Source of the DNA: Candidatus Methylomirabilota bacterium
GTDB lineage: Bacteria > Methylomirabilota > Methylomirabilia > Methylomirabilales > 2-02-FULL-66-22
DNA: 64,000 nucleotides
NCBI GenBank assembly: GCA_016209735.1
Contig: JACQVN010000030.1
Span: forward strand, 3,265-67,264
Direction of reading: 5' to 3'
Shown here: one piece after another, positions 25,013-61,147 of the stretch
Layout of the letters: each line of letters opens with the position of its first letter
How positions within the stretch are numbered: the stretch's first letter is position 1
Made by a program: the position numbers and the translations under genes
The notes under the pieces: generated by a model
What the model saw: the letters and a program-made list of their open reading frames with translations, nothing else
The model's database searches: none
What the model was told of the DNA's origin: nothing

Positions 25013-25981
25013 ATGCAGGTGATCCGCGCCGCGCGTCCCGAGGAGTTCGCCTGGAGTCTTGTGCGCCCCGTGGTGGCCATCGGGACCATGGATGGGGTGC
25101 ACCTTGGACACCAGGCGGTCCTGGCGAGCGCCCGGGAGCTGGCGGCGGCGCTCCACGGAACGGCGGCCGTTCTCACTTTTGCCCAGCATCCGCTGGAGGT
25201 GGTCCGGCCGGCGGAGGCGCCGGCGGTCATCACGCCGCTTCCGTTGAAGCTCCTGCTCCTGGAAGGCTGCGGGATGGAGGCGGCGCTCGCCATCGAGTTC
25301 TCCGCGGCCATGGCGGCCGTGGAGGCGGAGGCGTTCGTCAGCGACATCTTGTTCAAACGCCTGGGGGTAGCCGGTCTCGCCGTGGGCCACGATTTCGGCT
25401 TTGGCCGCGGTCGCCGCGGGACGGTGACACTCTTGACCTCCATGGCGGCGAGCGCGGGGGTGAGCCTGGTCGTGGTGCCGCCCGTCCGGCTCGGCGAGCA
25501 GGTGGTATCCAGCCGCCATGTCCGGGGCCTCCTGGCGGCGGGACAGGTCGCCGAGGCCCGTCGCTTCTTGGGCCGGCCCTTCGCCGTGTTGGGCCAGGGG
25601 CAGCCCGGGGCGGGGCGGGGCCGGGGCCTGGGCTTTCCCACCGCCAACCTGGCGCTCCTGGGCCGACCGGTCCTCAAGGACGGGGTGTACGCGGGGCGGG
25701 TCCTGGTGCGTGGCGAGTATCGGGACGCCGTGATGAACCTGGGGGTGGCGCCCACCTTTGGGGCGGGGGCGCGCCGGCTGGAGATCCACATCGCCGGATG
25801 GGCGGCTCCCCTGTACGGAGAGCGGCTGGTCGTCTACATCCTGGAGCGGCTGCGGGACGAAGCGCGCTTCCCCGATGCTGCAGCCCTGAAAAGCCAACTG
25901 GAACGCGATCTGGCTGCGGCAGAGGCCGTCTGGGAGGCCGCGCGCGGGCTTCCCTGGCCAGAATGGACTTTACAGGCTTAG
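25013..25981 (+). CDS. ribF: Bifunctional riboflavin kinase/FAD synthetase
   Basis: DGVHLGH; VGHDFGFG; VSSR; GRGLGFPTAN. Confidence 0.96.
   Translation: MQVIRAARPEEFAWSLVRPVVAIGTMDGVHLGHQAVLASARELAAALHGTAAVLTFAQHPLEVVRPAEAPAVITPLPLKLLLLEGCGMEAALAIEFSAAMAAVEAEAFVSDILFKRLGVAGLAVGHDFGFGRGRRGTVTLLTSMAASAGVSLVVVPPVRLGEQVVSSRHVRGLLAAGQVAEARRFLGRPFAVLGQGQPGAGRGRGLGFPTANLALLGRPVLKDGVYAGRVLVRGEYRDAVMNLGVAPTFGAGARRLEIHIAGWAAPLYGERLVVYILERLRDEARFPDAAALKSQLERDLAAAEAVWEAARGLPWPEWTLQA
25959..25976 (+). repeat. attL core
   Basis: CAGAATGGACTTTACAGG. Confidence 0.92.
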
Positions 25982-27142
25982 CGGGAAATCACGGACTTCG
26001 CTGCGGCCACTTGCGCGGGAGTTGCGTCCACTTGCACCGGCCGGGCGAGGATTTCGCCAATCACGTCCGCCGCCGCCCGCCCGGTCCCCGGCACAGCATG
26101 GCAATACGTGTTGATCGTCGTCGAGATGTCCTTGTGCCCCAACTGCCGACTGACGGTCAGGATGTCTACGCCCGCCCGAATCGCCAAGGTCGCGTAGGTG
26201 TGGCGGAGAATGTGCGGGTGAATGCGCCGCACCCCCGCTGCCGCCAGCGCCCGCCAGAGGGCCTCCCGCACGGGTGATTCGGTAAGGGGTCTGCCGTTGA
26301 TGTCGCCGGGGAAGAGCCAGCGCGCCTCCGTCCCCCGCACGGCCGCCTCAGCTTGCACAATCTGCGCCTGCTTCACCAAGAGCGCCATCACCGCTTCCGG
26401 CACGGCCACGGCCCGCCCTTCCCCATTCTTCGGTGAGGAGATTTTCCCGCCGCGCCCCACCTCCCGGACCACAAGCACTTTCAAGCTCGTCTGATCGAGG
26501 TCGCCCGGTTGCAAAGCCAGGCCTTCGCCGATCCGCACCCCCGTCGCCGCCAGCGCAACGAATACCGGGAAGAACCGGGGGCACACCCGCTCGGCCGCCG
26601 AAAGCGTCCGGTTGAGTTCCTCGCCGCTGAGGAAATCCACCTTCCGAATCTCGCCGTCTCGCCGCCCAAGACGCCCCGCGATCCGAAGGGATGGGTCCTT
26701 TACCAGGTAGTCTTCCATCACCGGCCGTTGCGCGATGCTGCGCAGGACCCCGCGATAATTGGCGAGGGTCTTTCGATCAAGCCCGCTCTCGCGTTGCCGC
26801 ACCCACCAATCTTCGATTTGGCCCGCCGTCCGGGCCGTGATGTAGCTCCCCGAAGGCCGGGAGGATCTTGCTCCTGACGATGCCCTCATAGTTCCGCACG
26901 GTTCCGGCCTTCCAGGTTGGCGCGTTCGCCCTTAACCATTGCTCTGCCACAGCCTTGACGGTCGGCACGGGGGTCTCGGACTCGAAACACTTCAGGTCCC
27001 CCAGCGTCAGCTTGGCCTGAATCGTCTGCGCCACAGCGAGGGCCGCCTTCTTGTGGCCCACGCGCTTGGCCTTCCGCTTGCTTTGGTGATTGATGAACAC
27101 CCACCAGGCGCCGTCTTTCTCCCGAACCGTGACACCCGTCAC
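25978..27142 (-). pseudogene. Tyrosine integrase split by a frameshift near 26845
   Basis: N-part (GTG 27142, SD GGAGG; VREKDGAWWVF...ILPAFGE) and C-part (TGVRIGE, HILRHTYAT, QLGH, Y) are in different frames. Confidence 0.85.
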
Positions 27143-27619: not shown

Positions 27620-27844
27620 ATGCGGGTGAAATACGATGTCGGGAATGACGTACTGTACTGCTTCTTCGGGGAGCCCGAGGAAGCCGTGTCCTTCGAAGTG
27701 GCGGACGGCGTCCTGCTGCGCGTGGACCCGAACGACGAGACCCGCGTGGTGGGCTTCACCGTCCTGGACCTCCGGCGCCGTTCCCTGGAGCAGCAAGGCT
27801 TCGATATCCCCTTCGAGACGGAGAATCTGAAAAGCGTGGCCTGA
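27620..27844 (+). CDS. DUF2283 family protein (putative antitoxin)
   Basis: MRVKYD...DVLY..F...S.EVADGVLLRVDP....VVGFTVL. Confidence 0.8.
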   Translation: MRVKYDVGNDVLYCFFGEPEEAVSFEVADGVLLRVDPNDETRVVGFTVLDLRRRSLEQQGFDIPFETENLKSVA

Positions 27845-27877
27845 GGCCGTCCGTTGACGGGAGAGAGGGGACCGACG

Positions 27878-28153
27878 ATGTTGACGCAGGCCATCGCCCA
27901 GAAACTCGACATGCCGCCCGAAGCCTTGGAGAAGGCCTCCTTGCGGGCGTTCCTGGAGGCTCGCCGTCGCGAGACCGAGGCGCAGCTCTTCCTCCTGGCC
28001 AAGAAACACGGCGTCCAGACCGTCCAGGAGTTCGATGCCGCCGTCCAGGCGGGACGCATCCGCGAGGAAGATGGCTTCGAGGACTTCTTGGTTTTTGACC
28101 GGCTGGAAGCGGACCGGGAGAAGATTCTCGAAGCACTCCAGAGCCTCCCGTGA
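27878..28153 (+). CDS. Small acidic helical protein, putative TA antitoxin
   Basis: SLRAFLE...KKHGV.TV.EFDAAV..G.I.E..GFED...DRLE pattern; SD present. Confidence 0.6.
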   Translation: MLTQAIAQKLDMPPEALEKASLRAFLEARRRETEAQLFLLAKKHGVQTVQEFDAAVQAGRIREEDGFEDFLVFDRLEADREKILEALQSLP

Positions 28154-28160
28154 CGCGCCT

Positions 28161-28499
28161 TCATGGCGTTCGTTGCTTCCCGCCTGACGACGTGATCCGC
28201 ATGTCCGCCAGAACGTCATTGACGATCTTGTCCACGTCAGGGACATGGCGGAAGGCTGCCATCCACTTGTCAAAGTCGGAGCGGCGCACCAGGATCTTGC
28301 CCGAGACGGCCCGGCGCCTGCCGTCTTTGCCCTGAATGACGTGGGGCTCCTTCATGCGATAGCAGGGGAGCGGGTGCTCCGGGTCGGCCAGGTAGGCGCG
28401 GAGGGATCGCACGGACATGCCGGAGTAACCGCTCAGGGCCTCCAGGCCCATCCACGGGTCCAACTCCATGCCGATGCTCACGGCCTCAACGACCTTCAC
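28161..28499 (-). CDS. Excisionase-like HTH protein
   Basis: LEALSGYSGMSVRSLR...LPCYR...KILVRRSDFDKWM. Confidence 0.7.
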   Translation of the reverse strand: MKVVEAVSIGMELDPWMGLEALSGYSGMSVRSLRAYLADPEHPLPCYRMKEPHVIQGKDGRRRAVSGKILVRRSDFDKWMAAFRHVPDVDKIVNDVLADMRITSSGGKQRTP

Positions 28500-28528
28500 G
28501 CCGCGCTCCGCCTTCTAGCCACCCTGTC

Positions 28529-28987
28529 TCACCCGCTCGATCGCCGCATCACGCGCAGGATTCCGCCCCAGAACAGTTCCTCGGCCCGCCGGCGTCTCAG
28601 CCACCGCCGGACGCGGCGAACCTCGCACTTGGGGATGTACTCCCGGCGGAGGCGCCACTCGTCTAATTCCGGATCCCAGGCCTTATATCTGAGAAACGAG
28701 TAGGGCCCATGCTTCATGCCACGGCTACAGCAACACGCGGGCTTTCCGCAGTTGGTCCGCTCGGTCACGAGGTAGGGGTTTTCGATGTCCCCGCTGGGGA
28801 TGCTCAAGTATCGGAACCGCTTGAGCGGGCGCGGCGATTTCTGAGGGCAGACGGGGTCCTGCTTCTTCGGCCCCTCGCGCGCCGCTGAGTGACCGCCTGA
28901 TACGTCTCGTGGATCAACTTGTCTCAGTCTAATCGCCGCTCTCCTCGAAGCCGACCACGCCCGCTTCAAGCGCGTCCGTCGCCGCAC
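28529..28987 (-). CDS. DUF6788-like Cys/His protein (start uncertain)
   Basis: CGKPACCCSRGMKHGPY...YIPK motif. Confidence 0.6.
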   Translation of the reverse strand: MRRRTRLKRAWSASRRAAIRLRQVDPRDVSGGHSAAREGPKKQDPVCPQKSPRPLKRFRYLSIPSGDIENPYLVTERTNCGKPACCCSRGMKHGPYSFLRYKAWDPELDEWRLRREYIPKCEVRRVRRWLRRRRAEELFWGGILRVMRRSSG

Positions 28988-29123
28988 GGTAGGCCGTCGC
29001 GCGACTCACCTCCGCGTCATGCCGGATCGCCGCAACCAAGTCGGGAAGGGAGACACTCGCCTGGGTCTGGAAGAGCTTGTGCAGGATCGCTTGCACCTGC
29101 TCGGGAGAAGGCCGTCGTCTCAT
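28929..29123 (-). CDS. Small winged-HTH protein
   Basis: SD GAGGAG; LPDLVAAI...VSRATAYRA. Confidence 0.55.
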   Translation of the reverse strand: MRRRPSPEQVQAILHKLFQTQASVSLPDLVAAIRHDAEVSRATAYRAATDALEAGVVGFEESGD

Positions 29124-29290
29124 TGTCTCAACTCCTCACGTCTCACCGCGTTCGGTCTGCCTATCGGCGTCTAGGTTCGGGCAGCCTCTCCCCAAGCCCC
29201 AGCCGGGTCCTGCAGCTATGGCACAGGTCCAGGCCGCGAGTGATCAACGGGGGCGTGGCAGGTACTGAAAGACGTTCGGGCCTGCGTTTC

Positions 29291-29635
29291 TCACGGCCTC
29301 CCCTCCAGCGCCAGTTCTGCAGCCAAGGTGCACAGCTCGCAACGCAGCTCATCCTCACCTATCGGGGCACCGCACGAGGAGCAACCCTCCGCTGTCCACT
29401 TCGGGTCTCGCAGCCGGACGAATGGATCTGGGCCGGCCGTCGAAAGTTGCCGGGAGAAAACCGATACTCGGCGTAGGACCGCCTCGATTGTCCGCCGGTC
29501 CTGGCGGAGCGATTGAGCGAAGTCTGAGGGAACCAAGCGGGGGCTCAGGGCACCGTTCTCCCACGTGAGCAACCCGTGAGCTGCTAGGTGTTCAACGGTC
29601 GCTAGGCCACGGGCGCGCATGCTCGCTCCCTCCAC
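29291..29635 (-). CDS. Hypothetical protein with C-terminal CxxC-CxxC
   Basis: CSSCG...CELC; follows the replication gene. Confidence 0.55.
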   Translation of the reverse strand: MEGASMRARGLATVEHLAAHGLLTWENGALSPRLVPSDFAQSLRQDRRTIEAVLRRVSVFSRQLSTAGPDPFVRLRDPKWTAEGCSSCGAPIGEDELRCELCTLAAELALEGRP

Positions 29636-31305
29636 ATCTGGTGTCGCTTGCAGAACTGAGAGCCCACCAGCGGGCGTCCGACACAGACCAGGCCGGCCCG
29701 GGTCGTGGCCTCGCAGCGCCGGTTGGGATCGGTCTTGACCAAGGGGGCCGCATCTTGCACCACCGCTTCCCGCAATGAGTCCGGCGGAGTCCAGTTCAGC
29801 CAGTCCTGCACGCCACCTTCCCAGACCGGCTTTCGGCTTCCATCGGCTTGAACCTGATAGACCCTCTTCCGAACTTCCGAGCTCATCTCGGAGTCCAGCC
29901 GCATGCTGGCGCGCACCTTCCCCATCCCCGCCGCTTCAACGCCTTGCGACAGCAGGGAACGGCCCGGAGAGAGCCCCAGACCGGGATCCTCTCTCCATTC
30001 ATGATCAGAGAGCACATGTTCCGCACTTCCTGCGGAGTGGTTGCGGTTGACATGTTCCGCACTTCCTGCCGGTGGAGTCGCTTTGGCTCCGATAGTCATT
30101 GGGTATGCGCGGGGGACTCGAACGTAGGCCGATTGCGCTTCAGCGTCATTCAAGCTCGTTGCATCGGCCTCTCCTACGTCGACATCTTCCGCACTTCCTG
30201 CGGAGGTTGTCAGAGGCGGCGTCATCTGCAACCAGAGATTCCTCCGGCCACCTGGCGCCGGTCCTTTGCGGATAACGCCCGCCTCAGCCAGTTCGTCGGT
30301 CGCCTTCCCAATCCGGTCCTCGCTCACCCTGGCTTCAGCCGCCATACGGCGCATTGAAATACGCACAATGAACGATGGACGCTCCGCACGTACCACCAGG
30401 ACGGGTAGCACCGCCTTGGCCCGCTCCGAGAGTTGCGCCATCGCCCCGGAGGTCACCACCCACGCGGGAAACTGGCCGAAGCCCGTGTGGGGTCGCGGCC
30501 GTGTACCGCCGGAGGCAAAGGCCTTCTCAACGGTGCGGCGCAAGTAGTCCGTCGTCCGGCCGCCGGCCACCGGCCACGGGGCATGCAAGAGGATCGCCGT
30601 CACCTCCTCCGGCGCGAAGTGATACCGTCTGGCACAATGGGCCAGCGTCATATCCCTGCCGCTCCCGCTCCGGTCAGGGTGGTCCGCTATCTCGCCTTTC
30701 CATACCGCACGGACTGAGGGATATTGAGCCACCAACTGAAGCCACCGTTGCGGGGGTCCCTCGTTCGCCGGCATCGAATGTGCCGACGGCTTAGGGAACA
30801 GGTCCATTACTCGTTGGGGTAATTCCGCAAGCGGTGTGTCCGGATCTTCAAAACAATAGATCAGCCCGGAGGGATGCACGGCCGGCGGCGCTAGGACGGA
30901 CTCTCCGTCCGCCCGAAGCTCAATTGCATCACCACCGGGTAGACGCAGGGAGCGTGAAACAAGTGGCCCAGCATGGTGAAAATATCGATGGCGTCCTCGC
31001 ATCGTCCGTACGGTAAGGGTCGTCGGCAAGTTCAGACCTTCAACCAGCGCCTCGGTTTCTCGCCCGTCTGTGTCGAGAACCGCAAGGCCAGACACCTTTC
31101 CGCAACCGACGGCCACGTTCGGGTTTCCGCCCTCAGCCGCGAAGTCAGCTCGCAACTCGTTCGGCGTGGCCCGGCGGCGTTGCCACTTCTTCCAGGGTCG
31201 CACACGTGTCTTGCTCCCTTCAGGCACCGCCATGGCCGCCCAGCCGCGTGCCAGGTACTCAAGGCCCGCCCGCAACGTCGGGGCGTCGGTCGGTCTCATG
31301 CTCAT
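29602..31305 (-). CDS. Bifunctional primase-polymerase (Prim-Pol) fused to helical, wHTH and C-terminal Cys/His domains
   Basis: YLARGW, NVAVGCG..SGLAVLDTD, T.RGRHRYF, VLAPPAVHPSG..Y; C-terminal CEATTRAG..C...FCKRH. Confidence 0.82.
   Translation of the reverse strand: MSMRPTDAPTLRAGLEYLARGWAAMAVPEGSKTRVRPWKKWQRRRATPNELRADFAAEGGNPNVAVGCGKVSGLAVLDTDGRETEALVEGLNLPTTLTVRTMRGRHRYFHHAGPLVSRSLRLPGGDAIELRADGESVLAPPAVHPSGLIYCFEDPDTPLAELPQRVMDLFPKPSAHSMPANEGPPQRWLQLVAQYPSVRAVWKGEIADHPDRSGSGRDMTLAHCARRYHFAPEEVTAILLHAPWPVAGGRTTDYLRRTVEKAFASGGTRPRPHTGFGQFPAWVVTSGAMAQLSERAKAVLPVLVVRAERPSFIVRISMRRMAAEARVSEDRIGKATDELAEAGVIRKGPAPGGRRNLWLQMTPPLTTSAGSAEDVDVGEADATSLNDAEAQSAYVRVPRAYPMTIGAKATPPAGSAEHVNRNHSAGSAEHVLSDHEWREDPGLGLSPGRSLLSQGVEAAGMGKVRASMRLDSEMSSEVRKRVYQVQADGSRKPVWEGGVQDWLNWTPPDSLREAVVQDAAPLVKTDPNRRCEATTRAGLVCVGRPLVGSQFCKRHQMWRERACAPVA
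30014..30205. repeat. Three iteron-like 20-24-bp direct repeats inside the replication gene
   Basis: ACAT(G/C)TTCCGCACTTCCTGC at 30014, 30050, 30182. Confidence 0.8.
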
Positions 31306-31372
31306 TGCTCGGTCCCGCTGCCGGAACCCGCAGCCGTGCCGATGGGGTGCGCGGGCCGGGTCGCCGTCGCGG

Positions 31373-31573
31373 TCATCGCTGACCCAATCCCGCCGCGCGT
31401 TTGGGATCGAAGCCCACACGGGCCATGGCCTCCACGTCCGAATCGCGGAGGCGAACCGCTCGCCCAATGCGCACGCAGTTCAAGTGCCGGAGAGAAAGCC
31501 ACTTCCGCAACGTGGCAGGGGCAAGCGCAAGCCGATCTGCAGCTTCTGGGATCGTTAGGAGCCTTTCGGTCAC
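31373..31573 (-). CDS. Excisionase-family HTH protein
   Basis: LLTIPEAADRL.LAPATLRKW......VRIGRAVRL; SD AGGAGG. Confidence 0.85.
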   Translation of the reverse strand: MTERLLTIPEAADRLALAPATLRKWLSLRHLNCVRIGRAVRLRDSDVEAMARVGFDPKRAAGLGQR

Positions 31574-31670
31574 TTTCTGCCCTCCTCTGAAGTGCGCCGG
31601 TTGAGGGCAGACTACCACCCGGAGATTGCGGCTGTCATAGAGGGAATAAAACGTTACCGGCGAGGGGTAA

Positions 31671-32930
31671 CTACTTCAAAGATCGAGGATAGCGGGGGAA
31701 ATTCAGAATGCTGATCGTTCCAGCCTTCCGTTGGGCCGAGAACCACTCAGCCAGAGATTGGCCAGGCGCGACAAGCGAGGGCTCACGAATCTGAATCACC
31801 ACGGGCTTTCCTGTGGATTCCAGAGGGCGAAAGCCTGCCATCTCCTCCCATTGCTTTCGGAACCGTCGCCATGGGATACGTCGATCGGCAACTTCTGAGA
31901 CAAGGGAACCTCTCAAAGCATCCCCCACCACCCATCGGATTCTTCCCCTGACGCGCGGAAGCTCAGGTGAAAGGGTCGAGCGCACTCGACGCACTTCCCG
32001 ACGGAGGGCCTCTGCGTGACTGTCCTTCTCCCCATTCTCTCGCCTGCTTTCCTCCTCCTCGGCCACTGCTCCCCTTGCGACAAATTCGCGGGAGAGTTCC
32101 GCGATGAGCTTCCACATCCGAAAGCACCCATTCGTGACGCGGGTGCAATGATCTACCGCGATCACTTGGAAGACGCGCAGTGCCCAGAGGAAAGGATCTC
32201 TGGAGACGGGTCGGCGGCCTTGGCGCCGTCGGTCAGATGGCGGCGGCTTGAAAACGATGCACAGGCTTCCAGGTTCGCCGGGGATTTCTTTCGGCGACTT
32301 ACCTCGTCGCTCCCGGTAGCTGCGAACCCGTAGCTTGGTGGCTCGACGCAACTCCCCCCGCGCGGCCAGCAGCGCGTTGGGCGACGTGGTTTCCTTCAGG
32401 AGCCACCAGAGGGCTCCAATGACGAAGTGGGCGTTATGGCCCAAGCGCCGCACTAATTCCCGGACATGTCTCGACTCGCGAAGGCGGCGGTAGAACTCCG
32501 CCTCACGCACAGCGTGAAGGTAGGACAGGAAATAGAAGTACGAGTCCATGGGATCCCGCGGGGCTTGCATAGCCCGTGAGATGATCTCCCGGCTCCGCGC
32601 TGCCCACGGGGTGAGAATCTGTCCGAGACGTGCGGGGGAGGGCGGGAAGACCCACTCGTCTGGCATACCGGGGAGGATGAAATTCTGTGCCACCAGGACT
32701 TCTTCATACTCGCGCTGCCCCAGATGCTTTAGGAACTGCAGGTGGCAAGGTAACGCTCGCTTCTTGCGTCGGCGAAACAAGCGCGCGAGGGCGTCCCATC
32801 GAGCGCGTGTACTCCCCTCCGGGGAGTTTTGCTCTGCTACATCTGTGCGCCGAACCTTGGCTATTTTGCAGACCGGCGCATCGTTCGGCTGCTGGTCCTT
32901 CGGATGGGATCCAGGAGGTTTGCTTGGCAT
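31671..32930 (-). CDS. Hypothetical basic protein (419 aa)
   Basis: Long ORF with SD GGAGG; no motif recognised. Confidence 0.55.
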   Translation of the reverse strand: MPSKPPGSHPKDQQPNDAPVCKIAKVRRTDVAEQNSPEGSTRARWDALARLFRRRKKRALPCHLQFLKHLGQREYEEVLVAQNFILPGMPDEWVFPPSPARLGQILTPWAARSREIISRAMQAPRDPMDSYFYFLSYLHAVREAEFYRRLRESRHVRELVRRLGHNAHFVIGALWWLLKETTSPNALLAARGELRRATKLRVRSYRERRGKSPKEIPGEPGSLCIVFKPPPSDRRRQGRRPVSRDPFLWALRVFQVIAVDHCTRVTNGCFRMWKLIAELSREFVARGAVAEEEESRRENGEKDSHAEALRREVRRVRSTLSPELPRVRGRIRWVVGDALRGSLVSEVADRRIPWRRFRKQWEEMAGFRPLESTGKPVVIQIREPSLVAPGQSLAEWFSAQRKAGTISILNFPRYPRSLK

Positions 32931-34299
32931 CGCCCCTCCCGAAGGAGGCCCGAGTGGATCCCCGGCCAGGCCATTCGGGAGACCATTTCTCGGGAGCGCC
33001 GGGGGTGCAACAGCTATCGCACTTACCCCTCCGCGTGTCCGTCGTGCTATCTGCTATGAAGCCCCGGATAACCCAACGAATCGAAAAAAAGAGCACCCAC
33101 GGAATTGTTGCCGCGCCGACCGCTGCGCTTGCCCCCAGCAACCACTCCCAGGCAGAAAGCGGAGTGGATATTGGGTTGCCGATGAACTGCTTCTTGCGCA
33201 ATTCTGCCAGATCGGCTTTTTCCTCCGGCGTGAGTGTGCCTCTGGCTTCGGCTTGCAGAATCGCCTTCCTGCTGTACAAGATGGAGGGTCTGTTGGCAGA
33301 AGCGGGAGAATAATAATAATGGAGGAAGGCGGACCCCTCTTCGTACGGAGCAAGGCAGAAACCGAGGCGTGGTCCCGTTGTAGCATCATTATCAAGGGCC
33401 TCCTTAATCGCCGACTCCGTTGTTCCGTCATCAAAACAAACGGGTCTCCCACCACTTCTATTTGATGCTGCCGCGTATACAAAGGAGGTGCCACCTTGAT
33501 CCAGTATTTCGCCCGCGCGATGCCATTTCTCCCGGCGAGCCCCATCCATAAGGGCAACAAGAGAAAAGACTGCAAAGAACAGGAGCACAGAGAGCAGCCA
33601 GGTAATCCGCCGGAACCCCCGCTCGACGTTTATGGTCTTACCCGCGCCGGCGGAAACCGCGCAAGAGGCACGCCGGTGCCCTTCGCGTATCAGACGTGGC
33701 CATGACGGCTCCCAATATTGTGTGCGGCTAAGAGCGGTCAGCATCCAGCGCAGCAACCCGGTGAGCCCTGCAACGGTGCCACCCGCCACCACGATCAGCA
33801 ATGCCAAACGGCCCGTCTCGGAGAATCCCTCTGTCGCTTGTATCCACCATGGAGTAGTGTTCACCCAGCGCGCCGTCTGCCACACCGCGTACATCAGCGC
33901 GAGCGTCAGCGCAACGCCGGTCCACTCCGCCACAGCGTACTGACTCCGTTTCAGGTCAGGCCGCGTCGGCTCCGGCTGCCCGCCCTCTGGCTCCCATGCC
34001 TCCCAGGCGCGCCGGTATGCCCGTGATGCGCGCCACTCTAACACCTGGATTACGCACGATATGCTGACTCCACAGAAGATACTCCCCACCGCCCCAACTA
34101 CCGGCAGGAGTACGGCCAAGAGCGAGATGAAGGAGATCCACGCGACCACCCGCTCCCCGAGAGGTCGAGGCGGACTCGTCCCCGACCAAAAAACTATCAG
34201 AGCAAAGAGGATGAGCAATACGGTCCAAGGAACCCACCACAGGCCCCACAGCCTGAAAATCCAATTTCGCACCATCTGCAGGGAGCTGTGGATTTTCAC
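32704..34299 (-). CDS. Hypothetical multi-pass membrane protein (possibly two fused or decaying genes)
   Basis: 531-codon ORF with several hydrophobic segments; 3' end overlaps the next ORF by ~230 nt. Confidence 0.45.
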   Translation of the reverse strand: MKIHSSLQMVRNWIFRLWGLWWVPWTVLLILFALIVFWSGTSPPRPLGERVVAWISFISLLAVLLPVVGAVGSIFCGVSISCVIQVLEWRASRAYRRAWEAWEPEGGQPEPTRPDLKRSQYAVAEWTGVALTLALMYAVWQTARWVNTTPWWIQATEGFSETGRLALLIVVAGGTVAGLTGLLRWMLTALSRTQYWEPSWPRLIREGHRRASCAVSAGAGKTINVERGFRRITWLLSVLLFFAVFSLVALMDGARREKWHRAGEILDQGGTSFVYAAASNRSGGRPVCFDDGTTESAIKEALDNDATTGPRLGFCLAPYEEGSAFLHYYYSPASANRPSILYSRKAILQAEARGTLTPEEKADLAELRKKQFIGNPISTPLSAWEWLLGASAAVGAATIPWVLFFSIRWVIRGFIADSTTDTRRGKCDSCCTPGAPEKWSPEWPGRGSTRASFGRGDAKQTSWIPSEGPAAERCAGLQNSQGSAHRCSRAKLPGGEYTRSMGRPRALVSPTQEASVTLPPAVPKASGAARV

Positions 34300-34843
34300 C
34301 GTCTTCTCCGTTACCCCATCGTCTCCGCTTCCATCGGCGGTCCCGGGCAGCGCCGGGCCGAGGCAGGACGTGCCGCCGCGTAGGCAGACTTCCCGCGGGC
34401 GATGATGCTCAGCAGCCGTCGGTTAACCGAGCACCACATTGATTGGGACCTTATCCGGCCTCAAGCAATAAGGCCCTTGACCGTACTGGGCCAAGGGCCT
34501 ACGTTTCGAGTAGCCGCACCTGGCCGATCAGGTCGCGGTCAGTCGAAGGACCTCGCCGATGGCACCGCGGGGCCCGTCGCCTGCCATCTCACTTCGTCAT
34601 GGCTTCAACCTGCACGCCTCCCGAGTCTCCGCGTCAAGGGACGTCTTGATGACGGACGCCGAAAGCTTTTCTGCGGGGGTCCTCATTGCCTGGCGCAGTT
34701 CATGGCGCGTCGAGGTTCTTTCCAAAAATCTCGCGACGAAAATGCCATTCACAGAAACTCGTCTTGCGATTCCTCCATCCGGTTCCGGTCGCCGGCACCA
34801 TTCCTGCCTCCCCTCGCGATCGATAGCTCAGGGAGGGTGAGAC

Positions 34844-35086
34844 TCATTCGAACGACATCAGCCGTTCTCGCATCGCCCGTTCCACGTTCTGCGTGATTCG
34901 AAGCGGCCACTCCTTCAGCCGGTTGCGCATGGCCGCGGCCGACACCGCGTACAGGCGGGCCAACCGCTCGGCCAAGTGGGCTTCCACCGCCGCGGGGTCA
35001 CCAAACCCGACCGCCGTGACCAGTTAGGGGTACACGGCGCGCGCCTCCCGGGACATGGTGATGGTCGGCATCAGGAGGGCCGCCGC
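34844..35086 (-). pseudogene. ImmA/IrrE-like C-terminal fragment with internal TAA
   Basis: AALLMPT...YP*LV...MRNRLKEWP...; stop at 35024-26; homologous to the end of 38203-38850. Confidence 0.75.
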
Positions 35087-35183
35087 CCCCGAGGAGCGCC
35101 TCCACGAGCCAGGCGACCATGGTCGCGACGACAATCCAGAGCGAGGCATCCGATCCATAGGCGAGGCAGGGGCGTGGGGTCAT
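34998..35183 (-). CDS. Hydrophobic peptide B, copy 1
   Basis: ATGA overlap with the peptide A stop; SDASLWIVVATMVAWLVEALLG. Confidence 0.45.
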   Translation of the reverse strand: MTPRPCLAYGSDASLWIVVATMVAWLVEALLGGGGPPDADHHHVPGGARRVPLTGHGGRVW

Positions 35184-35287
35184 CGGACAGGACTCCCGTC
35201 CCCAAAGATGGCCATGAGGAGGTCGACGATGGCCTGCGCCACCATCGCCCAGAGCGAGAGATCCGAGATCAGGCTGAGGAGATGCAT
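35180..35287 (-). CDS. 35-aa hydrophobic peptide A, copy 1
   Basis: SD GGAGGAGG; MHLLSLISDLSLWAMVAQAIVDLLMAIFGDGSPVR; same length in copy 2. Confidence 0.6.
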   Translation of the reverse strand: MHLLSLISDLSLWAMVAQAIVDLLMAIFGDGSPVR

Positions 35288-35676
35288 TGGGGCCTCCTCC
35301 CCCGGACACTGACCGGGAAGTCGAGGACCTCGATGTGGGTGAAGCCGGCCGCGCGGTATGAGCGAAACGGGCCAACCGCCCGCAATATTCGGAAGGAGCG
35401 AGCGCCCTAAGGTGGCTTCGAGGGAACGCTCACCCCAAATCCTACGCCTAACCGCCGTGCGGAGCCAACCCGAAGCTCGGCCCGCCCTCAGCCCGCGCCG
35501 GAATGCGGCAAGGAGGGGAAGGGGAATCTTCAACGGTCGGGGGGGGGAGTGGCCCCGGGTTTTGGCCCAAAATTTCGCGGCGGAAATGCGATTCACGGAA
35601 ATCCGTCTGGCGGTTTCTCCGTCCGGTTGGCCTGCCAGGCCCATTTCCCGTCGGAGACGGCAGGCCGGGGAGACGA

Positions 35677-36180
35677 CTACCGGACGGCCAGAGCGGCCGG
35701 CGAGAGCACCAACTTTGCCGGACGGTGGCGCTTCCGCGCGATGGACCGCAGGGCATCCCGAATCCGCTGGAGGTGGGGCGGTAACGGCGCGGTCTCGTCA
35801 ATGCACCACACGCCGTAGACCAGCCGGATGAGCCGATCGCTCGGGGGGCCGATGGGTTCGGCGCCGGTCTCCCACCGCGTGACGCTTTCCCGTTGGACCC
35901 CGACAATCTCCGCCAGGTCTTGGGCGCGGAGGCCCATCTGCTTGCGGAGGAAGCGGAACTCGGGGCCGCTGAGGGGTCGCGGTTCCTGCGCGAGCCAATC
36001 CGCGATCCCCCGATGGAGCCGGCGGGAGTTCGGGATCTCGGGCAATTCGGCCGCGCAGCGCCGGCACCGGTAGACCGTGATCCCCTTCAGCCACAAGTTT
36101 GGAATCCCGCTCTCCGGGTACGGAATCGTCCGGTTCCGATGTGCCCGCATCCGCGTGCCGCAGTCCAAGCATCGCATCAT
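35677..36180 (-). CDS. MqsA-like antitoxin (YgiT-type Zn finger + XRE HTH)
   Basis: CLDCG...CRRC; EFRFLRKQMGL...LAEIVGV....VTRWETG. Confidence 0.88.
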   Translation of the reverse strand: MMRCLDCGTRMRAHRNRTIPYPESGIPNLWLKGITVYRCRRCAAELPEIPNSRRLHRGIADWLAQEPRPLSGPEFRFLRKQMGLRAQDLAEIVGVQRESVTRWETGAEPIGPPSDRLIRLVYGVWCIDETAPLPPHLQRIRDALRSIARKRHRPAKLVLSPAALAVR

Positions 36181-36202
36181 GGTGCCTCACCCCCCTCGCC
36201 GA

Positions 36203-36535
36203 TCAGTAGGCAGTGATCAGGATCAACCGGAAATTGGCTTCGTCGATGCACACAACCACGTGGAGTTCGTTCCCTCCCACATCGGTGCCGGCCATATCGT
36301 AATTGTGGGCCCGGTGCTCCGGCTTCCATTGCCCCGGCCGAAGAACGGCCCCGTGTTCGAGAACGTGGTTCACATCCCCCATGTCGGCGTTGGCCCGGGC
36401 CAATTCGCGCACGAAGTGCTCGGTGCGGCTGAAGGGTCCCCCCTCCAGGAAGACGCGCCGAATCGCGGTCGTCGCCTGGGCAGGGGTGAGAGACTGTGGT
36501 GGTCGGTCGTCCGGTGTTCTTCCTCGTGTGCCCAC
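36203..36535 (-). CDS. DUF4258-like (RelE/MqsR-fold) putative toxin
   Basis: TEHFVREL..AN....DV..VL..G...LHVVV....LILITAY; directly upstream of the MqsA-like gene. Confidence 0.75.
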   Translation of the reverse strand: MGTRGRTPDDRPPQSLTPAQATTAIRRVFLEGGPFSRTEHFVRELARANADMGDVNHVLEHGAVLRPGQWKPEHRAHNYDMAGTDVGGNELHVVVCIDEANFRLILITAY

Positions 36536-36885
36536 CGTAGTCTCCTGTGTAACATTTCCTCACATGATCCGTCAACGGAAAACTGCGGTCCACCCGGGCG
36601 GGGGCCGACTCTGCAGAAGAATCGCCGACAATTCTTCGGGCTACAGACCGTGGCCGCGGGCATCTCAACTGGTAGTGAGCACTGCGCTCAGGAAGTGATC
36701 ATCCTACTGCTTCGTTGGCCACCACCTGGCCGGCGCGCAATTGACGCCCTGACAATTGATGATTTCTCTCGTTCACGATGGCCCGGCGCCCGCAGGGTAA
36801 CGGGCTTTTGGTCGAAGGTTTTGGGCTCCCGGAGGATCTCACCGCAGGTCGTGGCCGACGTGGGCTGCATCAGCAAGAGCGAGGG

Positions 36886-37326
36886 TCAGAGTTTGGTGTG
36901 GGTAAGATCCACCCAGCCGCACGCGAAACAAAACGCTCGCCCCGGATTGAAGGTCGCAAGGTTCAGGAACACATCGTGGATCTGAACACGAGACGGGTCG
37001 CGCTCGTTATTGTGCTGCTCGCAAAGGCTCAAGAGCCACTCCCCTATTGATGGTGTCAACGCCGGGTTCCACTCACCCGTTTCACGGTCCACGGAGAAGA
37101 ACGGGTTTCCAAGACCGAGGACCCCGGCGGGATGGACACGCCCCCACCTTGTTCCGTCCGGCAGCGTGATCACCGCCCTCCCGTCCGCGATCTGCTCCCA
37201 GAGGCCCTCGGTATCATGTGGCTCCCTTATGTACTCACGGGCCTCCTCTAGACTGTGGAATCGGACCTCCCGCTCGATTGGAAGGGGTTTGATCACAAAA
37301 CCTTCAAGGTCCAGCGACCATTTCAT
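36886..37326 (-). CDS. Hypothetical protein (146 aa)
   Basis: SD GGAGG, ATG, globular-looking composition, C-terminal CxxC. Confidence 0.55.
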   Translation of the reverse strand: MKWSLDLEGFVIKPLPIEREVRFHSLEEAREYIREPHDTEGLWEQIADGRAVITLPDGTRWGRVHPAGVLGLGNPFFSVDRETGEWNPALTPSIGEWLLSLCEQHNNERDPSRVQIHDVFLNLATFNPGRAFCFACGWVDLTHTKL

Positions 37327-37966
37327 AGTGTCTGACCTCCGCGTTACAAGCGAACTTGGCAGAGAAGAGGCAGCCCTTCACGGCGACGCCCTCCGTGGTG
37401 GCACGAAGACTCCAACGAAAAAGAGAGGGAAAGATCATCAAGGGCCAGGCGGCCCTGGTCATCCGGGTGGTGGAGTGGGTGCCCCCGGGGTGTTAGTGGG
37501 GACGCCCACCTGAACGCTACCAGCACCACCTGCGCGAGTCAGTCGCTCTCCAGGCTGCGAGCCGGCCAACGGGTCGGGCTCGGCGTACCCTGCTGTCGGC
37601 TCCACCGCCCCGCGACGATCGCCCCTGCCTCCCGGCCCCCGGCTGTCCACCGGCCCCCTCGGCCCGCCGCCCGCTCCTCTGCGCCCGGCCTCTTCGGGGC
37701 CTCCGATGCCGCCTCACGCGGGCGCGGGAGCCATTCGGATCATCAGGGCTGGCGCGCCACGAAGGGCCGCGGCTATCGCGGCCCAAGAAGCCGACGATAG
37801 CAAGAAGCTTGCCGCCGGATTACGGTGGCGGATCTGCTCGCCCTCGCGAGCCTCCCCCTCGAAACCGACCCTCTCTTTGTCCCTGCCTGAGCCGACCGCC
37901 CGTCTCGCGGAAGCCCGCCGGCTGACGACCGCCTACCAGGCCGGGGGTCCCGATGCGGTTCAGGCC

Positions 37967-38149
37967 TTCCGTGACCTCGTCGATATGCCGGCGGATGTCA
38001 CCATCACCGCGCAGCAGGTGGAGGTGAGCTTCCACCGCCGATCTCACCTGCCCACCGTGTTAACCTCGGGGCTCCTGGACCAGCCCGTGCCCATCCCGTG
38101 GTGGAACGGCGTCCCCTTGCGCCTGACCACCTACCACGGACCTGCGTGA
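37967..38149 (+). pseudogene. Possible transposase C-terminal remnant
   Basis: FRDLVDMPADV.I....VEV.FHRRSHLP...IPWWNG..LRL resembles DDE transposase tails (recalled, not searched); no start. Confidence 0.35.
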
Positions 38150-38202
38150 TCACTCAATTCTTAGGAGCCGTTCTCGTCGATCTGTCGGCCTGGGTTGCCT
38201 CT

Positions 38203-38850
38203 TCAGTCGGCGAGGGAGAGCGCCTTAGCGTCGAGGGCCCGATCAACTTTCCGCAGGACCTCCACAGGCCAGCGCTCGAGGCGGTACTGCATGGGACCGA
38301 CGTTGACCACGTACCGCTGACTGAGACGGATTACCAGGGAGCGTCTGAATACCGCGAGCCGGTCAAAGCCGTACTGCTTGACCAATCCGGCATACACCTG
38401 GCGGGCATCCTGGAGCAGCGGGGTCGAAGGCATCAAGAGGGCCGAGGCAAACCACTTGGCATTCCGGTCCAGATACTCGTAGTCGGAAGACGCATGCAGC
38501 ATGGCCGCCTCTTCCACCGAGTGGACGTGGCGAAGGACCGGCCGGTGCAGGTGGAGATGTCCCAATTCCTCGCCAACCGTGAAGCGGTAGAAGCCGGGGT
38601 TCCCATCGGCGACCGCCTCGTCAATCAGGACGGTGAAACGATCCTCCTTGGGGTGGTAGACCGTCACCCCGGGGACGCCGAATTGTGCCTGCAAGCCCCG
38701 CTCGGTATCGAGGGTCACCCCAGGCTCCCGCTCCGTGAGCAGCTCGATATCCACGGGAATCGTGAGGCCTGGCCAGCGTTCGCGCAGGAGATCGCACGCG
38801 AGGGATTCCAGTTTGGTCAGCGCGTAACGCGGGATCGGCGGCGTGCTCAT
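38203..38850 (-). CDS. ImmA/IrrE-family metallopeptidase-like protein, atypical metal motif
   Basis: IPVDIE, RFTVGEELGH..LH, AKWFASALLMP; coupled to the XRE gene. Confidence 0.85.
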   Translation of the reverse strand: MSTPPIPRYALTKLESLACDLLRERWPGLTIPVDIELLTEREPGVTLDTERGLQAQFGVPGVTVYHPKEDRFTVLIDEAVADGNPGFYRFTVGEELGHLHLHRPVLRHVHSVEEAAMLHASSDYEYLDRNAKWFASALLMPSTPLLQDARQVYAGLVKQYGFDRLAVFRRSLVIRLSQRYVVNVGPMQYRLERWPVEVLRKVDRALDAKALSLAD

Positions 38851-39242
38851 CGCTTGCGGCGTTTCCGGTTGATGAACCGGGTGAGTTCCGCGATTTCCTC
38901 CTTCGTCAAGCGCCGGTTCTGGAGGGTGCGCAGCATCACGGGGATGCCCGGAGTCCTGGCGGCGAACGCCGCGACATCCGGCGGGAGCGTCTGTTTCTTG
39001 TGGGCGACGGCGAGGTCAAAAAGACGGTCCCGCTCTTTCGAACCCTCCGGGAAGCCAAGCGTCTCGGCGATCCGGCCCAGGATCCCGAGGTCTTGGGGGG
39101 GCGGAATCCGTCCATGCTCCACATTGCTGAGATTGGATGGTTGCATGTCGACGGCTTCGGCGAACACCCGTAGCCCAAAGCCGGCCTTCAACCGGCAGGC
39201 CCGCAGGTACTCACCGAAGGTTTCCCTCTTTGCCATGGCCAC
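38847..39242 (-). CDS. XRE-family repressor (ImmR-like)
   Basis: FGEYLR..R...GLRVFA......SNLSNVEHGR.PPP. Confidence 0.9.
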   Translation of the reverse strand: MAMAKRETFGEYLRACRLKAGFGLRVFAEAVDMQPSNLSNVEHGRIPPPQDLGILGRIAETLGFPEGSKERDRLFDLAVAHKKQTLPPDVAAFAARTPGIPVMLRTLQNRRLTKEEIAELTRFINRKRRKR

Positions 39243-39256
39243 CCCCTTCGCGGGAA

Positions 39257-39301
39257 GTTATATGTCTCATATAACATACGCTTCCCATCCGGTGGTGTCA
39301 A
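39257..39301 (-). promoter_or_regulatory. immR promoter with palindromic operator
   Basis: Minus strand TTGACA-17-TATGTT; GTTATATG-tct-CATATAAC (39257-39275) overlaps -10/+1. Confidence 0.75.
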
Positions 39302-39374
39302 CCGGTTCTTCCATTCGGCCAGGGCCTCGGGAGAGCCCGTTCCGTCGCGAGCGGCAGGCCGGGAAGCGTGCGAC

Positions 39375-39614
39375 TCATTCGAGCGACATCAGCCGCTCTC
39401 GCATCGCCCGTTCCACCTTCTGCGTGATCCGAAGCGGCCACTCCTTCAGCCGGTTGCGCATGGCCGCGGCAGATACCGCATGCTGGCGGGCCAACCGCTC
39501 GGCCAGGTGGGCTTCCACCGCCGCGGGGTCACCAAATCCGACCGCCTTGACCAGTTGGGGGTACGCGGCGCGCGCCTCCCGGGACACGCTGATGGTCGGC
39601 ATCAGGAGGGCCGC
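39375..39614 (-). pseudogene. ImmA/IrrE-like C-terminal fragment (frame open)
   Basis: AALLMPTISVSREARAAYPQLVKAVGF...RLKEWPLRI...LMSLE; N-terminal catalytic half absent. Confidence 0.7.
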
Positions 39615-39714
39615 TGGCCCCGAGGAGCGCCTCCACGAGCCAGGCGACCATGGTCGCGACGACAATCCAGAGCGAGGCATCCGATCCATAGGCGAGGCAG
39701 GGGCGTCGGGTCAT
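39529..39714 (-). CDS. Hydrophobic peptide B, copy 2
   Basis: ATGA coupling; same core and length as copy 1. Confidence 0.45.
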   Translation of the reverse strand: MTRRPCLAYGSDASLWIVVATMVAWLVEALLGASGPPDADHQRVPGGARRVPPTGQGGRIW

Positions 39715-39818
39715 CGGACAGGACTCCCGTCCCCAAAGATGGCCATGAGGAGGTCGACGATGGCCTGCGCCACCAAGGCCCAGAAGGAGAAATCCGAGAC
39801 GAGCGCGAGCGAATTCAT
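39711..39818 (-). CDS. 35-aa hydrophobic peptide A, copy 2
   Basis: SD AGGAG; MNSLALVSDFSFWALVAQAIVDLLMAIFGDGSPVR. Confidence 0.6.
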   Translation of the reverse strand: MNSLALVSDFSFWALVAQAIVDLLMAIFGDGSPVR

Positions 39819-40561
39819 TGCGGTCTCCTGCCCCGGACACTGACCGGGAAGTCGAGGACATCGATGTGGGTGAACCCAGCCGCGCGGTATGAGTGAAACG
39901 GGCCGGCTGCCCGCAGTATACGGAAGGAGCGAGCGCCCCGAGGTGGGTATGGGGAAGCGCTCTAGAAACAGCCTACGCCTAAGCGTCATTCCGAGTCAAT
40001 CCGAATCCCGGCCCGCCCTCAGCCCGCGCCGGAATACCAGCCAGGAAGGGATACGGCCGGTGAATCTTCAACGAATTTTGGCCCGAGATATTTTGGGGGA
40101 ATGCCGTTTCTGGGGCTCGGCCTGGGCGTTTCTCCGTCCGGTTCCTGTTCCCGGCGCCCTACCTGTCTCCCCTCTTCCCCCCTGCCCAACGCGCCCCTCC
40201 GGGACTTGCCCAGGTGCTCCCTGCTCACCCTTCCTGGATCCGGGCGTCTAAGGATTGGCCTTCGCTGACACTGGCCCGACCTTCCCCCTCGCCCGTGCCG
40301 TCCTGTGGGTCCGCTGGTCCCACTCCGCAATCAGCGCAGTCCAGCCGATCCTTTGGCCTCTGTTGCTGTTCCAGGCCGGCCAGGTTGGCCGATCTCGGAG
40401 TGGCGGCTACCTTGTGGGGGCGTTCAGCGGCTTGATGTCTCCCCCCCCCTCGTGGCGGGGACCGGGGTTGCCGGTTGCCCGATGTGCGTCGAGCGTAGTT
40501 GCGGAGCGCCCCTCACGTGGTCGCCGACGTACTACACTAGTACCCGGTCCGGCCCCCGCCT

Positions 40562-40596
40562 CCGGGGGAGGCCAGCCCGATCCTCCCCCGGATTTT
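40562..40596 (+). terminator. Putative intrinsic terminator near the right end of the element
   Basis: ccgggggagg..tcctcccccgg followed by atttt. Confidence 0.45.
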
Positions 40597-40688
40597 CCGC
40601 TTGCGCGGGGCTTGCATTTCCTGCCTCGAAATGGTAATTTTTGCCACCCTGTTTCCCTTAAGTTCCCGCCAGTTACGCCCCTTCAAGG

Positions 40689-40706
40689 CAGAATGGACTT
40701 TACAGG
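40689..40706 (+). repeat. attR core
   Basis: CAGAATGGACTTTACAGG. Confidence 0.92.
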
Positions 40707-40727
40707 GGTAGGCCCCTATGGTAATTT
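40699..40727 (+). promoter_or_regulatory. Putative rpsO promoter
   Basis: TTTACA-17-TAATTT with extended TG. Confidence 0.55.
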
Positions 40728-40775
40728 CGCCAATTGCCAAGAATTCACACTGGGCTCGAAAGGAGGGGAGCGATC

Positions 40776-41045
40776 ATGCCCAAGGAATGGTCGAACAAGG
40801 GAGAAGTCATCGGGCAATACCGCCGGCACGATACGGACACCGGTTCGCCCGAAGTGCAGATCGCCCTCCTCTCGGGGCGCATCGGGTACCTGACCGAGCA
40901 CCTGAGCGTTCATAAGAAGGACCACCACTCGCGGCGCGGCCTCCTCATGCTGGTCGGCCGGCGGCGGAAACTGCTGGACTACTTGAAGATCAAGGACATG
41001 GACGGCTACAAGCGAGTCATCGAAAGGCTAGGCATTCGCAAATGA
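40776..41045 (+). CDS. rpsO: 30S ribosomal protein S15
   Basis: [12 protein letters not shown]; [12 protein letters not shown]. Confidence 0.99.
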
Positions 41046-61144: not shown

Positions 61145-61147
61145 CCG

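Follow-up and report, generated by a model that had tools for sequence, protein, structure and literature searches.

A probable recombination scar, present twice, at one end of a ribF-rpsO integrative element in a Methylomirabilota bacterium

The DNA considered here is a stretch of 64,000 nucleotides, called the window throughout, from contig JACQVN010000030.1 (positions 3,265 to 67,264) of a metagenome-assembled genome (MAG, GCA_016209735.1) of a Candidatus Methylomirabilota bacterium. The window contains two direct repeats, each with a cassette of two small hydrophobic open reading frames (ORFs), termed pepA and pepB, followed by a piece of an immA gene. The cassettes bracket an intact immR-immA pair, encoding an XRE-family repressor and a Peptidase_M78 protein, and a toxin-antitoxin (TA) pair. 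A sequence-only reading of the same stretch had proposed that the cassettes form either a peptide-linked ImmA/ImmR switch or a type I TA-like module, with a detached ImmA C-terminal domain as one of its parts. The analysis described here points to a different explanation. The cassette is probably a chimeric recombination scar that occurs in two copies within the accessory end of a small integrative element, and the repeat is mostly genome wreckage rather than a new switch. The two orphan peptides, which may still be functional, stand apart from this reading.

The repeated cassette

Alignment of both regions bore out the pair of direct repeats, at ~0.7 kb each and with 88% identity over ~700 nt. 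Exactly two copies are found in the genome (MAG, 69% complete). The repeat core of 300 nt (34811-35110 and 39342-39641) is 91% identical. Strong homology runs along the minus strand from 35508 to 34844 in copy 1 and from 40040 to 39375 in copy 2, and weaker homology extends upstream through a ~120-nt element, X. The homology had been said to end at the stop codon of the ImmA fragment; it runs ~35 nt past that stop. Each copy is composed, in order on the minus strand, of X, ~260 nt without coding signal, pepA, pepB, and the ImmA fragment, which spans 237 nt and is read in the third frame, after those of pepA and pepB. The 35-amino acid (aa) ORF preceded by a Shine-Dalgarno (SD) sequence, the second ORF coupled to it by ATGA, and the out-of-frame ImmA piece, as first described, were all found in both copies.

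Copy 1 begins with Xb (35547..35663; E-value (E) 1e-24), an X repeat of the 'post-ImmA' subtype that, like all parts of both cassettes, lies on the minus strand. Leader 1 (35288..35546), a stretch without coding signal, separates Xb from pepA1 (35180..35287), a 35-aa hydrophobic mini-ORF with the SD sequence GGAGGAGG. It is followed by pepB1 (34998..35183), an ATGA-coupled ORF of 61 codons that is coding-like to codon 32 only, and by ImmA'1 (34844..35080), a 3' remnant of immA with a TAA codon inside. A third X repeat, Xc (34708..34826, minus strand; E 3.7e-28), occupies its native place directly after the ImmA stop, as it does in the 52-kb metagenome contig L069. Copy 2 begins with Xa (40061..40184; E 2.4e-26), of the subtype found upstream of immR in L069, and continues with leader 2 (39819..40060), the untranslated stretch between Xa and pepA2. 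The latter (39711..39818) is again a 35-aa hydrophobic mini-ORF, with AGGAG as its SD sequence. The ATGA-coupled pepB2 (39529..39714) also has 61 codons, of which codons 1-32 are coding-like and the tail is ImmA sequence out of frame. The last part, ImmA'2 (39375..39611), is the same 3' remnant, corresponding to residues ~137-216 of the ImmA type found in L069 and in the sister genome G001, and is 93% identical in nucleotides to the 3' part of the intact L069 gene.

Identity between the copies is a mosaic, at 84, 68, 88, 94, 70, 96, 98, 100, 92, 92, 98, 90, 94, and 68% in 50-column windows of the alignment. The X subtypes at the 5' side differ between the copies, as do the native ImmA-downstream flanks at the 3' side. 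The two pepA copies have 14 differences, all within codons 2-15, and the ratio of nonsynonymous to synonymous substitution rates (dN/dS) is 0.49 over codons 1-16. These differences had been called largely synonymous or conservative. The first half of that description is overstated, with 3 synonymous codon changes to 7 replacements, and the conservative look of the replacements probably comes mostly from NTN codons, where a first-position change swaps one hydrophobic residue for another. The next ~150 bp are almost identical, as reported, with 3 differences in the 162 nt after the variable codons of pepA.

The cassette is present in Logan contigs of four groundwater metagenome runs from one study, with no RNA run listed among the four. 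These runs are probably the source samples of the MAG, and so are not independent of it. Their contigs reproduce all four unique flanks of both copies with 0 differences and break in the near-identical core. Thus, two left and two right halves exist, and the pairing of left with right halves rests on the MAG assembly. The break in the core, which leaves the linkage of the halves without independent confirmation, is what could be said for the duplication being a MAG assembly artefact. With copies that differ by 12% and four distinct flanks that each recur with 0 differences in the contigs of several runs, such an artefact is hardly credible. Deletion of the intervening 3.7 kb by recombination between the repeats, as suggested in the sequence-only reading, is plausible in principle; no joint across the two repeats is listed among the run contigs, which cannot resolve such joints. 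One loose contig end lies at 35258, within pepA1, where the contig diverges from the window.

The ImmA piece and its junction

The fragments are homologous to the neighbouring ImmA, as had been noted, over residues 136-213 with 37% identity (E 4e-14 and 3e-13). They are much closer to the intact 216-aa ImmA of G001, to which they are 79.7% and 77.5% identical (79-80 aa; residues 137/138-216). The window's intact ImmA (38203-38850) is only 45.6% identical to the G001 protein and is therefore of a second type. Intact pairs of immR (134 aa) and immA (216 aa) are found in the sister genomes G001, G020, and G003. In a collection of 5.8 billion proteins, the 104-aa ORF over copy 2 matched nine proteins. 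One of them, P0071, is 94% identical to the fragment and extends upstream as canonical ImmA sequence. P0077 and P0078 are ImmA-type database proteins with internal deletions, and P0072 and P0074, from ENA metagenomes, are 75-aa gene calls that start at the M of LLMP.

Homology of the cassettes to intact immA starts sharply at the codons for Ala-Ala-Ala-Leu-Leu-Met-Pro (AAALLMP), and no trace of ImmA homology upstream of this break was found in the cassettes. In Pfam, residues 88-153 of the intact neighbour align with positions 42-100 of the 123 in the M78 profile, so that the break at residue 137 falls within the catalytic domain rather than at its edge. The metal-binding HEXXH-type motif is outside the fragments, which begin downstream of it, at the residue equivalent to 137. 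A PF06114 (Peptidase_M78) match was obtained for the intact neighbour (E 2.8e-7) and for neither the 104-aa (39375-39689) nor the 47-aa (34844-34987) ORF. Of the four features that define ImmA/IrrE Peptidase_M78 (COG2856) membership, the fragments miss three and have only the C-terminal homology.

The remnants also differ from intact genes in constraint. Copy 1 has its TAA codon 18 codons after the start of homology, and inspection by eye showed no SD sequence ahead of any possible internal start of ImmA'. Differences between the ImmA' copies are spread over codon positions as 5/4/7. The two copies differ from each other with a dN/dS of 0.39 and from L069 with one of 0.28-0.34; these values are based on only 11-15 differences. 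Among the intact L067, L069, L071, and L073 genes plus the L070 remnant, the ten pairs giving a value have dN/dS of 0.02-0.05; L071 is counted as intact in this comparison and has an unrelated N-terminus. With the TAA in copy 1 and the raised dN/dS, ImmA' has neither an intact frame with a start nor the mark of purifying selection.

Truncation of this kind is peculiar to the window's genome, G000, among 251 genomes of the phylum. This ImmA type occurs in 11 of them, G000 included, and 5'-truncated copies are found only in G000, where both start at query residue 24. In the other 10 genomes the matches run from query residue 1-2 to 97-103 within open frames of 181-273 aa. An alignment-based scan of JGI metagenome contigs gave 17 further loci, of which six are intact (L067, L069, L073, L075, L077, and L080), three run off the end of a contig (L068, L074, and L083), and eight are altered (L070; L071 and L072, which are the same sequence; L076; L078 and L079, also the same sequence; L081; and L082). 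Breaks in immA vary in place among the altered loci. At the window's own breakpoint, L070 has another ORF, of 206 aa and without a Pfam family, fused out of frame. Its remnant is only 77-78% identical in nucleotides to that of the window, and the L070 break is thus probably independent of the window's break. The shared position may reflect microhomology at the GC-rich GCN-GCN-GCN run.

The ImmA piece is very likely a scar. The 'detached ImmA C-terminal domain' as a designed part gives way to a 3' remnant that is cut inside a domain, out of frame, interrupted by TAA, and relaxed in constraint, which is the deletion scar of a longer known gene that the sequence-only reading had itself named as grounds for refuting it. 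Joint modulation of ImmA/ImmR by the peptides and the detached domain, for example as a decoy or sensor, is largely refuted and very improbable. Only the nearness of an intact immR-immA pair and the 75-aa ImmA C-terminal calls elsewhere speak for it. Against it stand the features just listed, the lack of a slippery sequence at the frameshift (by eye), and a fragment of another ImmA type than the neighbour. The sole sigma-70-like site in 34200-40800 precedes immR (39301-39273). It is a promoter-like TTGACA-17-TATGTT with a palindromic operator-like site, GTTATATGAGACATATAAC (together 39257..39301, minus strand). The palindrome (39257-39275) has no second copy in the window and is absent from both leaders. 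A peptide-linked ImmA/ImmR switch is therefore unsupported.

The intact arrangement is represented by L069, in which X (1930-2039), immR (2112-2507), immA (2504-3154), and a second X (3169-3280) follow one another. ImmA'1 and Xc align with the L069 immA 3' part and X over 375 nt at 84.5% identity. The immR-immA module is thus natively flanked by X at either end. Between X and AAALLMP, the window has leader, pepA, and pepB, a segment of ~460 nt, in place of the promoter, immR, and immA codons 1-136 of L069. Past the junction, at which pepB loses its last codons, the rest of ImmA is out of frame.

X is an intergenic repeat of ~110-125 nt. The window has three copies only (Xa, Xb, and Xc), all local, and X as a genome-wide repeat was rejected. 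Further copies lie in L053 (3474-3598), L067 (2820-2933), and, as given above, L069. Outside the window's own genome, the confident finds of X are G006, alone among 60 related genomes, and L067, L068, and L069. The G006 copy adjoins an IS3-like insertion sequence (IS) element, as read by eye from its ORFs, and the sequence downstream of it is no more similar to the leaders than shuffles are. The modules flanked by X are immR-immA in L069, an HTH_37 gene in L067, and the MqsA/DUF4258 pair and pep units in the window. A GG-N10-GC motif resembling a sigma-54 promoter was seen, by eye only, in Xc, the G006 copy, and the second X of L069.

X and the AAALLMP site could be the sites of a dedicated cassette-exchange system, in which modules swap between X-bounded slots by site-specific recombination. 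Such a system would fit the differing modules flanked by X, the homology of the Xb flank, which begins exactly at the MqsA stop codon, the duplicated units that begin right after X, and the identical immA breakpoint in loci only 77-78% alike. However, X has no attC-like hairpin: eight DNA folds (four copies, both strands) gave z of -0.86 to +0.69 with no long-range consensus pairs, and X as attC was rejected. The repeat is also rare among related genomes, and no viral contig matched its 25-nt core pattern. No PF00239 resolvase-type recombinase was found in the 69%-complete genome, and a PF00589 search of the contig returned only two tyrosine recombinases, one at the element end (26095-26625) and one beside tRNA genes (61547-62146). 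In addition, immA is broken at many different places in other loci. Together these make dedicated exchange improbable.

Under the scar reading, one deletion would have fused an X-flanked pep module to the immR-immA module that followed it. The fused unit would then have been copied to a second place, or have spread there by recombination within X and the immA 3' part. The latter route fits because the copies differ in their 5' X subtype and 3' flanks, and other routes are possible. The ImmA remnants would be functionless and decaying, and the working switch of the element, if it has one, would be the intact second-type ImmR/ImmA pair between the copies. Only pepA and pepB may still function; they would encode a pair of peptides that each cross the membrane once, and nothing found ties them to ImmA/ImmR.

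The pepA and pepB reading frames

In both copies, pepA is preceded at 6-8 nt by a GGAGG-type SD sequence, and pepB starts in an ATGA overlap with pepA, at 35183 and 39714. PepA has 35 aa, and PepB is made up of 32 native residues and a foreign tail. In each of them, the most hydrophobic 19 residues have a Kyte-Doolittle mean of 1.98-2.04, consistent with a predicted membrane helix. PepA and PepB are 38-41% identical in protein sequence and are tandem paralogues. Coding-like composition stops in pepB right at the junction: up to Gly32, the codon log-odds is +0.32/+0.36 and the GC content of codon positions 1/2/3 is.66/.50/.81, and thereafter the values are -0.75 and.86-.93/.62-.69/.52. Aligned with pepA, the junction lies 1-2 codons past a conserved Gly, and hence the native end of pepB is missing.

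Several observations weigh against the scar reading. Of the six frames, those of pepA and pepB(1-32) score best, with log-odds of 0.44-0.46 and 0.32-0.36 per codon, and no other frame exceeds 0.10. Compared with 1028 non-coding small ORFs, taken from the wrong frames of 533 long genes, pepA is in the top 1.3-1.5% and pepB in the top 2.9-4.3%, and the two lie at the 12th-23rd percentile of true coding windows. The SD sequence and the ATGA coupling are kept in both copies. The alignment score of PepA with PepB was reached by none of 2000 residue shuffles. At the DNA level, the similarity is weak, as the score was reached by 26 of 1000 codon shuffles in copy 1 and by 778 of 1000 in the other copy, and only an 18-nt patch in copy 1 stands out. 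This difference between a significant protein-level and a weak DNA-level similarity suggests past selection on the peptides, and 'pure wreckage' may be too harsh a term for pepA and pepB. On the ImmA side, the P0072 and P0074 calls make a free-standing 75-aa ImmA C-terminal product possible in other lineages. The breakpoint common to L070 and the window could be a specific recombination site instead of the outcome of microhomology. Finally, the unfused pep module that the deletion scenario requires was found nowhere in the searches.

Other observations argue against a present function. Against 14 hydrophobic-like (low-GC2) null ORFs, the score of pepA is unexceptional, as 21% of them reach it. 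The ImmA remnant still has a codon log-odds of 0.47, which means that coding-like composition outlives function. In addition, the dN/dS between the pepA copies is 0.60, no lower than that of the adjoining dead ImmA piece.

The peptides have no convincing relatives in any collection searched. In 250 other genomes of the phylum, searched in six frames with a profile, none was found (best E 0.012), and the weak matches cover short parts only, all but three of them inside open frames of >200 aa. A word search with pepB (61 aa) among the 5.8 billion proteins, limited to lengths of 33-107, returned one candidate and none at E<=0.01. The profile search of 1.84 billion representative proteins matched only three long repeat proteins that share a short motif, with profile positions 2-18 matched five to seven times in each. 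Two of the three have an SDGSLWAMG repeat, which is presumably RCC1-like, and the repeat of the third is unrelated. An RCC1-repeat origin was rejected as a motif coincidence, with no such match in the phylum search. Pattern scans with tblastn confirmation upheld none of 296 candidates from JGI metagenome contigs, none of 236 from species-representative genomes (GTDB), and none of 116 from viral contigs; the patterns require near-identity at ten residues and short peptides often go uncalled, so distant relatives may be missed. A weak DNA match to the pepB core in G018 was set aside, being antisense within an unrelated long gene. In the ESM Atlas, the best score for pepA2 was 0.80, which is at chance level, and Pfam gave no family for the ORFs containing pepA1 and pepB2. 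Conservation of the peptide frames and SD sequences in homologous loci, on which the sequence-only reading would have stood or fallen, cannot be shown, as the searches found no other locus with the peptides.

Rfam identified only two tRNAs in the whole window at gathering thresholds and nothing at E<=5 in 34300-40800. The leader as a structured RNA was rejected, as its folds compared with shuffles gave z of -1.04 and +0.34. In the leader consensus fold, 3 of 57 pairs have double changes, a count that comes from two sequences only. Simple scans, which could miss an antisense RNA antitoxin, found no promoter-like site inside the cassettes on either strand. The only good terminator-like hairpin in 34200-40800 is at 34471..34500 (minus strand), with 12 pairs and then a T-rich tail.

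In the same consensus fold, the leader has at its 5' end a CCUCCU-like run that pairs with the SD sequence of pepA (35510-35515 with 35290-35297 in copy 1; 40040-40046 with 39821-39827 in copy 2), with one double change between the copies. This predicted pairing is a lead, not evidence.

The most substantial rival to the scar reading is that pepA and pepB form a functional type-I-toxin-like or other membrane-peptide module, acting in maintenance, exclusion, or lysis, with a long 5' leader and the ImmA remnant as its 3' untranslated region. The 19-residue hydrophobic stretches, the coding-like best-frame codon usage, the SD sequence and ATGA coupling kept in both copies, and the tandem paralogy of the peptides all agree with such a module, as does its siting in an integrative element beside a type II TA pair. 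The CCUCCU-SD pairing, with its one compensatory change, has also been counted on this side, and prophage-maintaining type I TA modules have been reported (PMC7699646). On the other hand, the peptides have no relatives in the searches, the pepA dN/dS is 0.60, the native end of pepB is lost, the cassettes have no promoter-like site or Rfam match, the leader folds no better than shuffles, and the pepA codon score is unexceptional among low-GC2 null ORFs. On balance, the module as a whole is unlikely.

The scar reading leaves room for the peptides themselves. Codon usage and the paralogy of PepA and PepB favour pepA and pepB as real or recently real coding sequence. That they are functional genes at present is put at slightly below an even chance, and a type-I-toxin-like role is possible. 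A bolder proposal makes them an undescribed coupled pair of single-pass membrane peptides, type-I-toxin-like in maintenance or exclusion, carried as an X-bounded module of a ribF-targeting element in an NC10-type bacterium. The fused module would spread inside elements and from one to another by recombining in X and in the conserved immA 3' end, knocking out resident immR-immA switches as it went. This is a long shot.

The integrative element and its place among known systems

The repeat locus lies at the attR end of a 14.7-kb integrative element (25959-40711) between ribF, identified by its FAD_syn and Flavokinase domains, and rpsO. The attL candidate (25959..25981) is a 23-nt direct repeat over the last ribF codons and the integrase stop. 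The attR candidate (40689..40711) is a second copy of it (21/23), 23 nt before rpsO. The element encodes a tyrosine integrase (25978..26889, minus strand; PF00589, E 1.7e-22), a Prim-Pol protein (29602..31467, minus strand; PF09250, E 1.4e-23), and a DUF6788 protein. In 11 of 11 sister loci, the ribF end and rpsO start are contiguous with a single core; these loci were drawn from the 19 of 20 genus genomes that match the rpsO region, with the other eight left out. Because of these empty sites, the 14.7 kb between the 23-nt repeats is an integrated element, with end repeats, an integrase inside, and an empty site in relatives.

Within the Prim-Pol ORF span (30014-30205) are three 24-nt direct repeats, ACATGTTCCGCACTTCCTGCGGAG-like and 88-100% identical. 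They resemble iterons and could mark the replication origin of the element. Elsewhere on the contig, the second tyrosine recombinase (~61547-62146, minus strand) directly adjoins tRNA-Gly and tRNA-Cys, and the region 61017-62146 may be the end of another integrated element.

Between the cassettes, the intact ImmR-like repressor of the XRE family (38847..39242, minus strand; 131 aa; HTH_31, E 6e-12) and the intact ImmA-like Peptidase_M78 protein of the second type (38203..38850, minus strand; 215 aa; 46% identical to the parent of the fragments) have orthologues in G006, at 73% nucleotide identity over 1036 nt. A 3' remnant of a DDE transposase lies at 37877..38149 (start approximate, plus strand), with its own gene call of 90 aa. 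It has 66 short homologues, mostly on short contigs and with source names that indicate candidate division NC10; one of these homologues carries PF01609. About 220 nt from its X copy, G006 has a stretch that is 82% identical to the 153 nt at 37825-37977. Further along are an orphan ORF of 146 aa without a family match (36886..37326, minus strand), a DUF4258 protein presumed to be a toxin (36203..36535, minus strand; E 2.9e-6), and an MqsA-family antitoxin-like zinc-ribbon/HTH protein (35677..36180, minus strand; TIGR03830, E 2.3e-18).

This region varies in the source community. A contig of depth 44 in run X1 joins 36490 to 37430 and skips 939 nt that include the 146-aa ORF, which is thus missing from the main variant in that run. 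The same contig carries 37 differences in its DUF4258 region, which has diverged. A junction of 36792 with 35316 that has 27 extra letters occurs in two runs and could represent a tandem or circular form, or a leader set before the TA pair.

As it stands, the locus is of little importance beyond being an example of a regulator module of a small integrative element that has been eroded, fused, and duplicated. It is also a caution against taking a truncated gene piece for a 'detached domain'. Two by-products may be of use, namely that an uncultured groundwater lineage carries a 14.7-kb integrase/Prim-Pol element at ribF, and that the ~120-nt repeat X brackets small accessory modules in it. Were pepA and pepB expressed and toxic, for which the odds are modest, they would be a new small-toxin family in a phylum without genetic tools.

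A full-text literature search found no peptide-ImmA arrangement, nor NC10 mobile elements with one, which is weak evidence for absence from print. Xre-COG2856 pairs are described as abundant mobile modules in phages and prophages by Makarova et al. 2009 (PMC2701414), who cite ImmA as needed for the proteolytic inactivation of ImmR. The window's intact pair is an ordinary Xre-COG2856 member by Pfam. Like ICEBs1 ImmR/ImmA, this pair and the parent of the fragments have an XRE repressor gene followed by an overlapping M78 gene in an integrative element. Unlike that system, the pieces in the repeats have the last ~80 residues only, without the metal-binding motif, out of frame, and decaying. The motif usual in M78 peptidases is HEXXH. 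In its expected place, the intact ImmA-like proteins here (window; L004, 70-720; L005, 1090-1740) have EE[FL][AG]HxxLH instead.

The known type I toxin-antitoxin families include hok/sok, tisB/istR, and fst. The cassettes are like these and the C. difficile prophage modules in that their peptides are short, hydrophobic, and tandemly paralogous, that the leader is long, and that they lie on a mobile element, whereas pepA and pepB lack family homology or conservation elsewhere and simple scans found no antisense RNA or promoter. Integron arrays are likewise similar in their same-strand small modules, TA pairs among them, and in a ~120-nt repeat right after stop codons. They differ in that X has no attC-like hairpin and few copies. 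No integron integrase was seen beside the array in the general PF00589 search, the only one made, none having been aimed at integron integrases. Integrative elements whose insertion at a gene's 3' end duplicates its last bases offer another parallel, with the 23-nt repeat over the ribF stop, an integrase at one end, and empty sister sites; nothing in the 14.7-kb element is unusual in this respect, and it serves as context only.

The acquisition and erosion of TA systems are the subject of a 2026 paper (PMC13617665). Eroded TA or regulator modules resemble the cassettes in the truncated 3' remnant, the nonsense codon, the relaxed constraint, and the IS remnant nearby, and deletion variants occur in 8 of the 17 loci. 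The window differs from such modules in having the remnant joined to an orphan segment of two ORFs, and in having two copies of this fusion.

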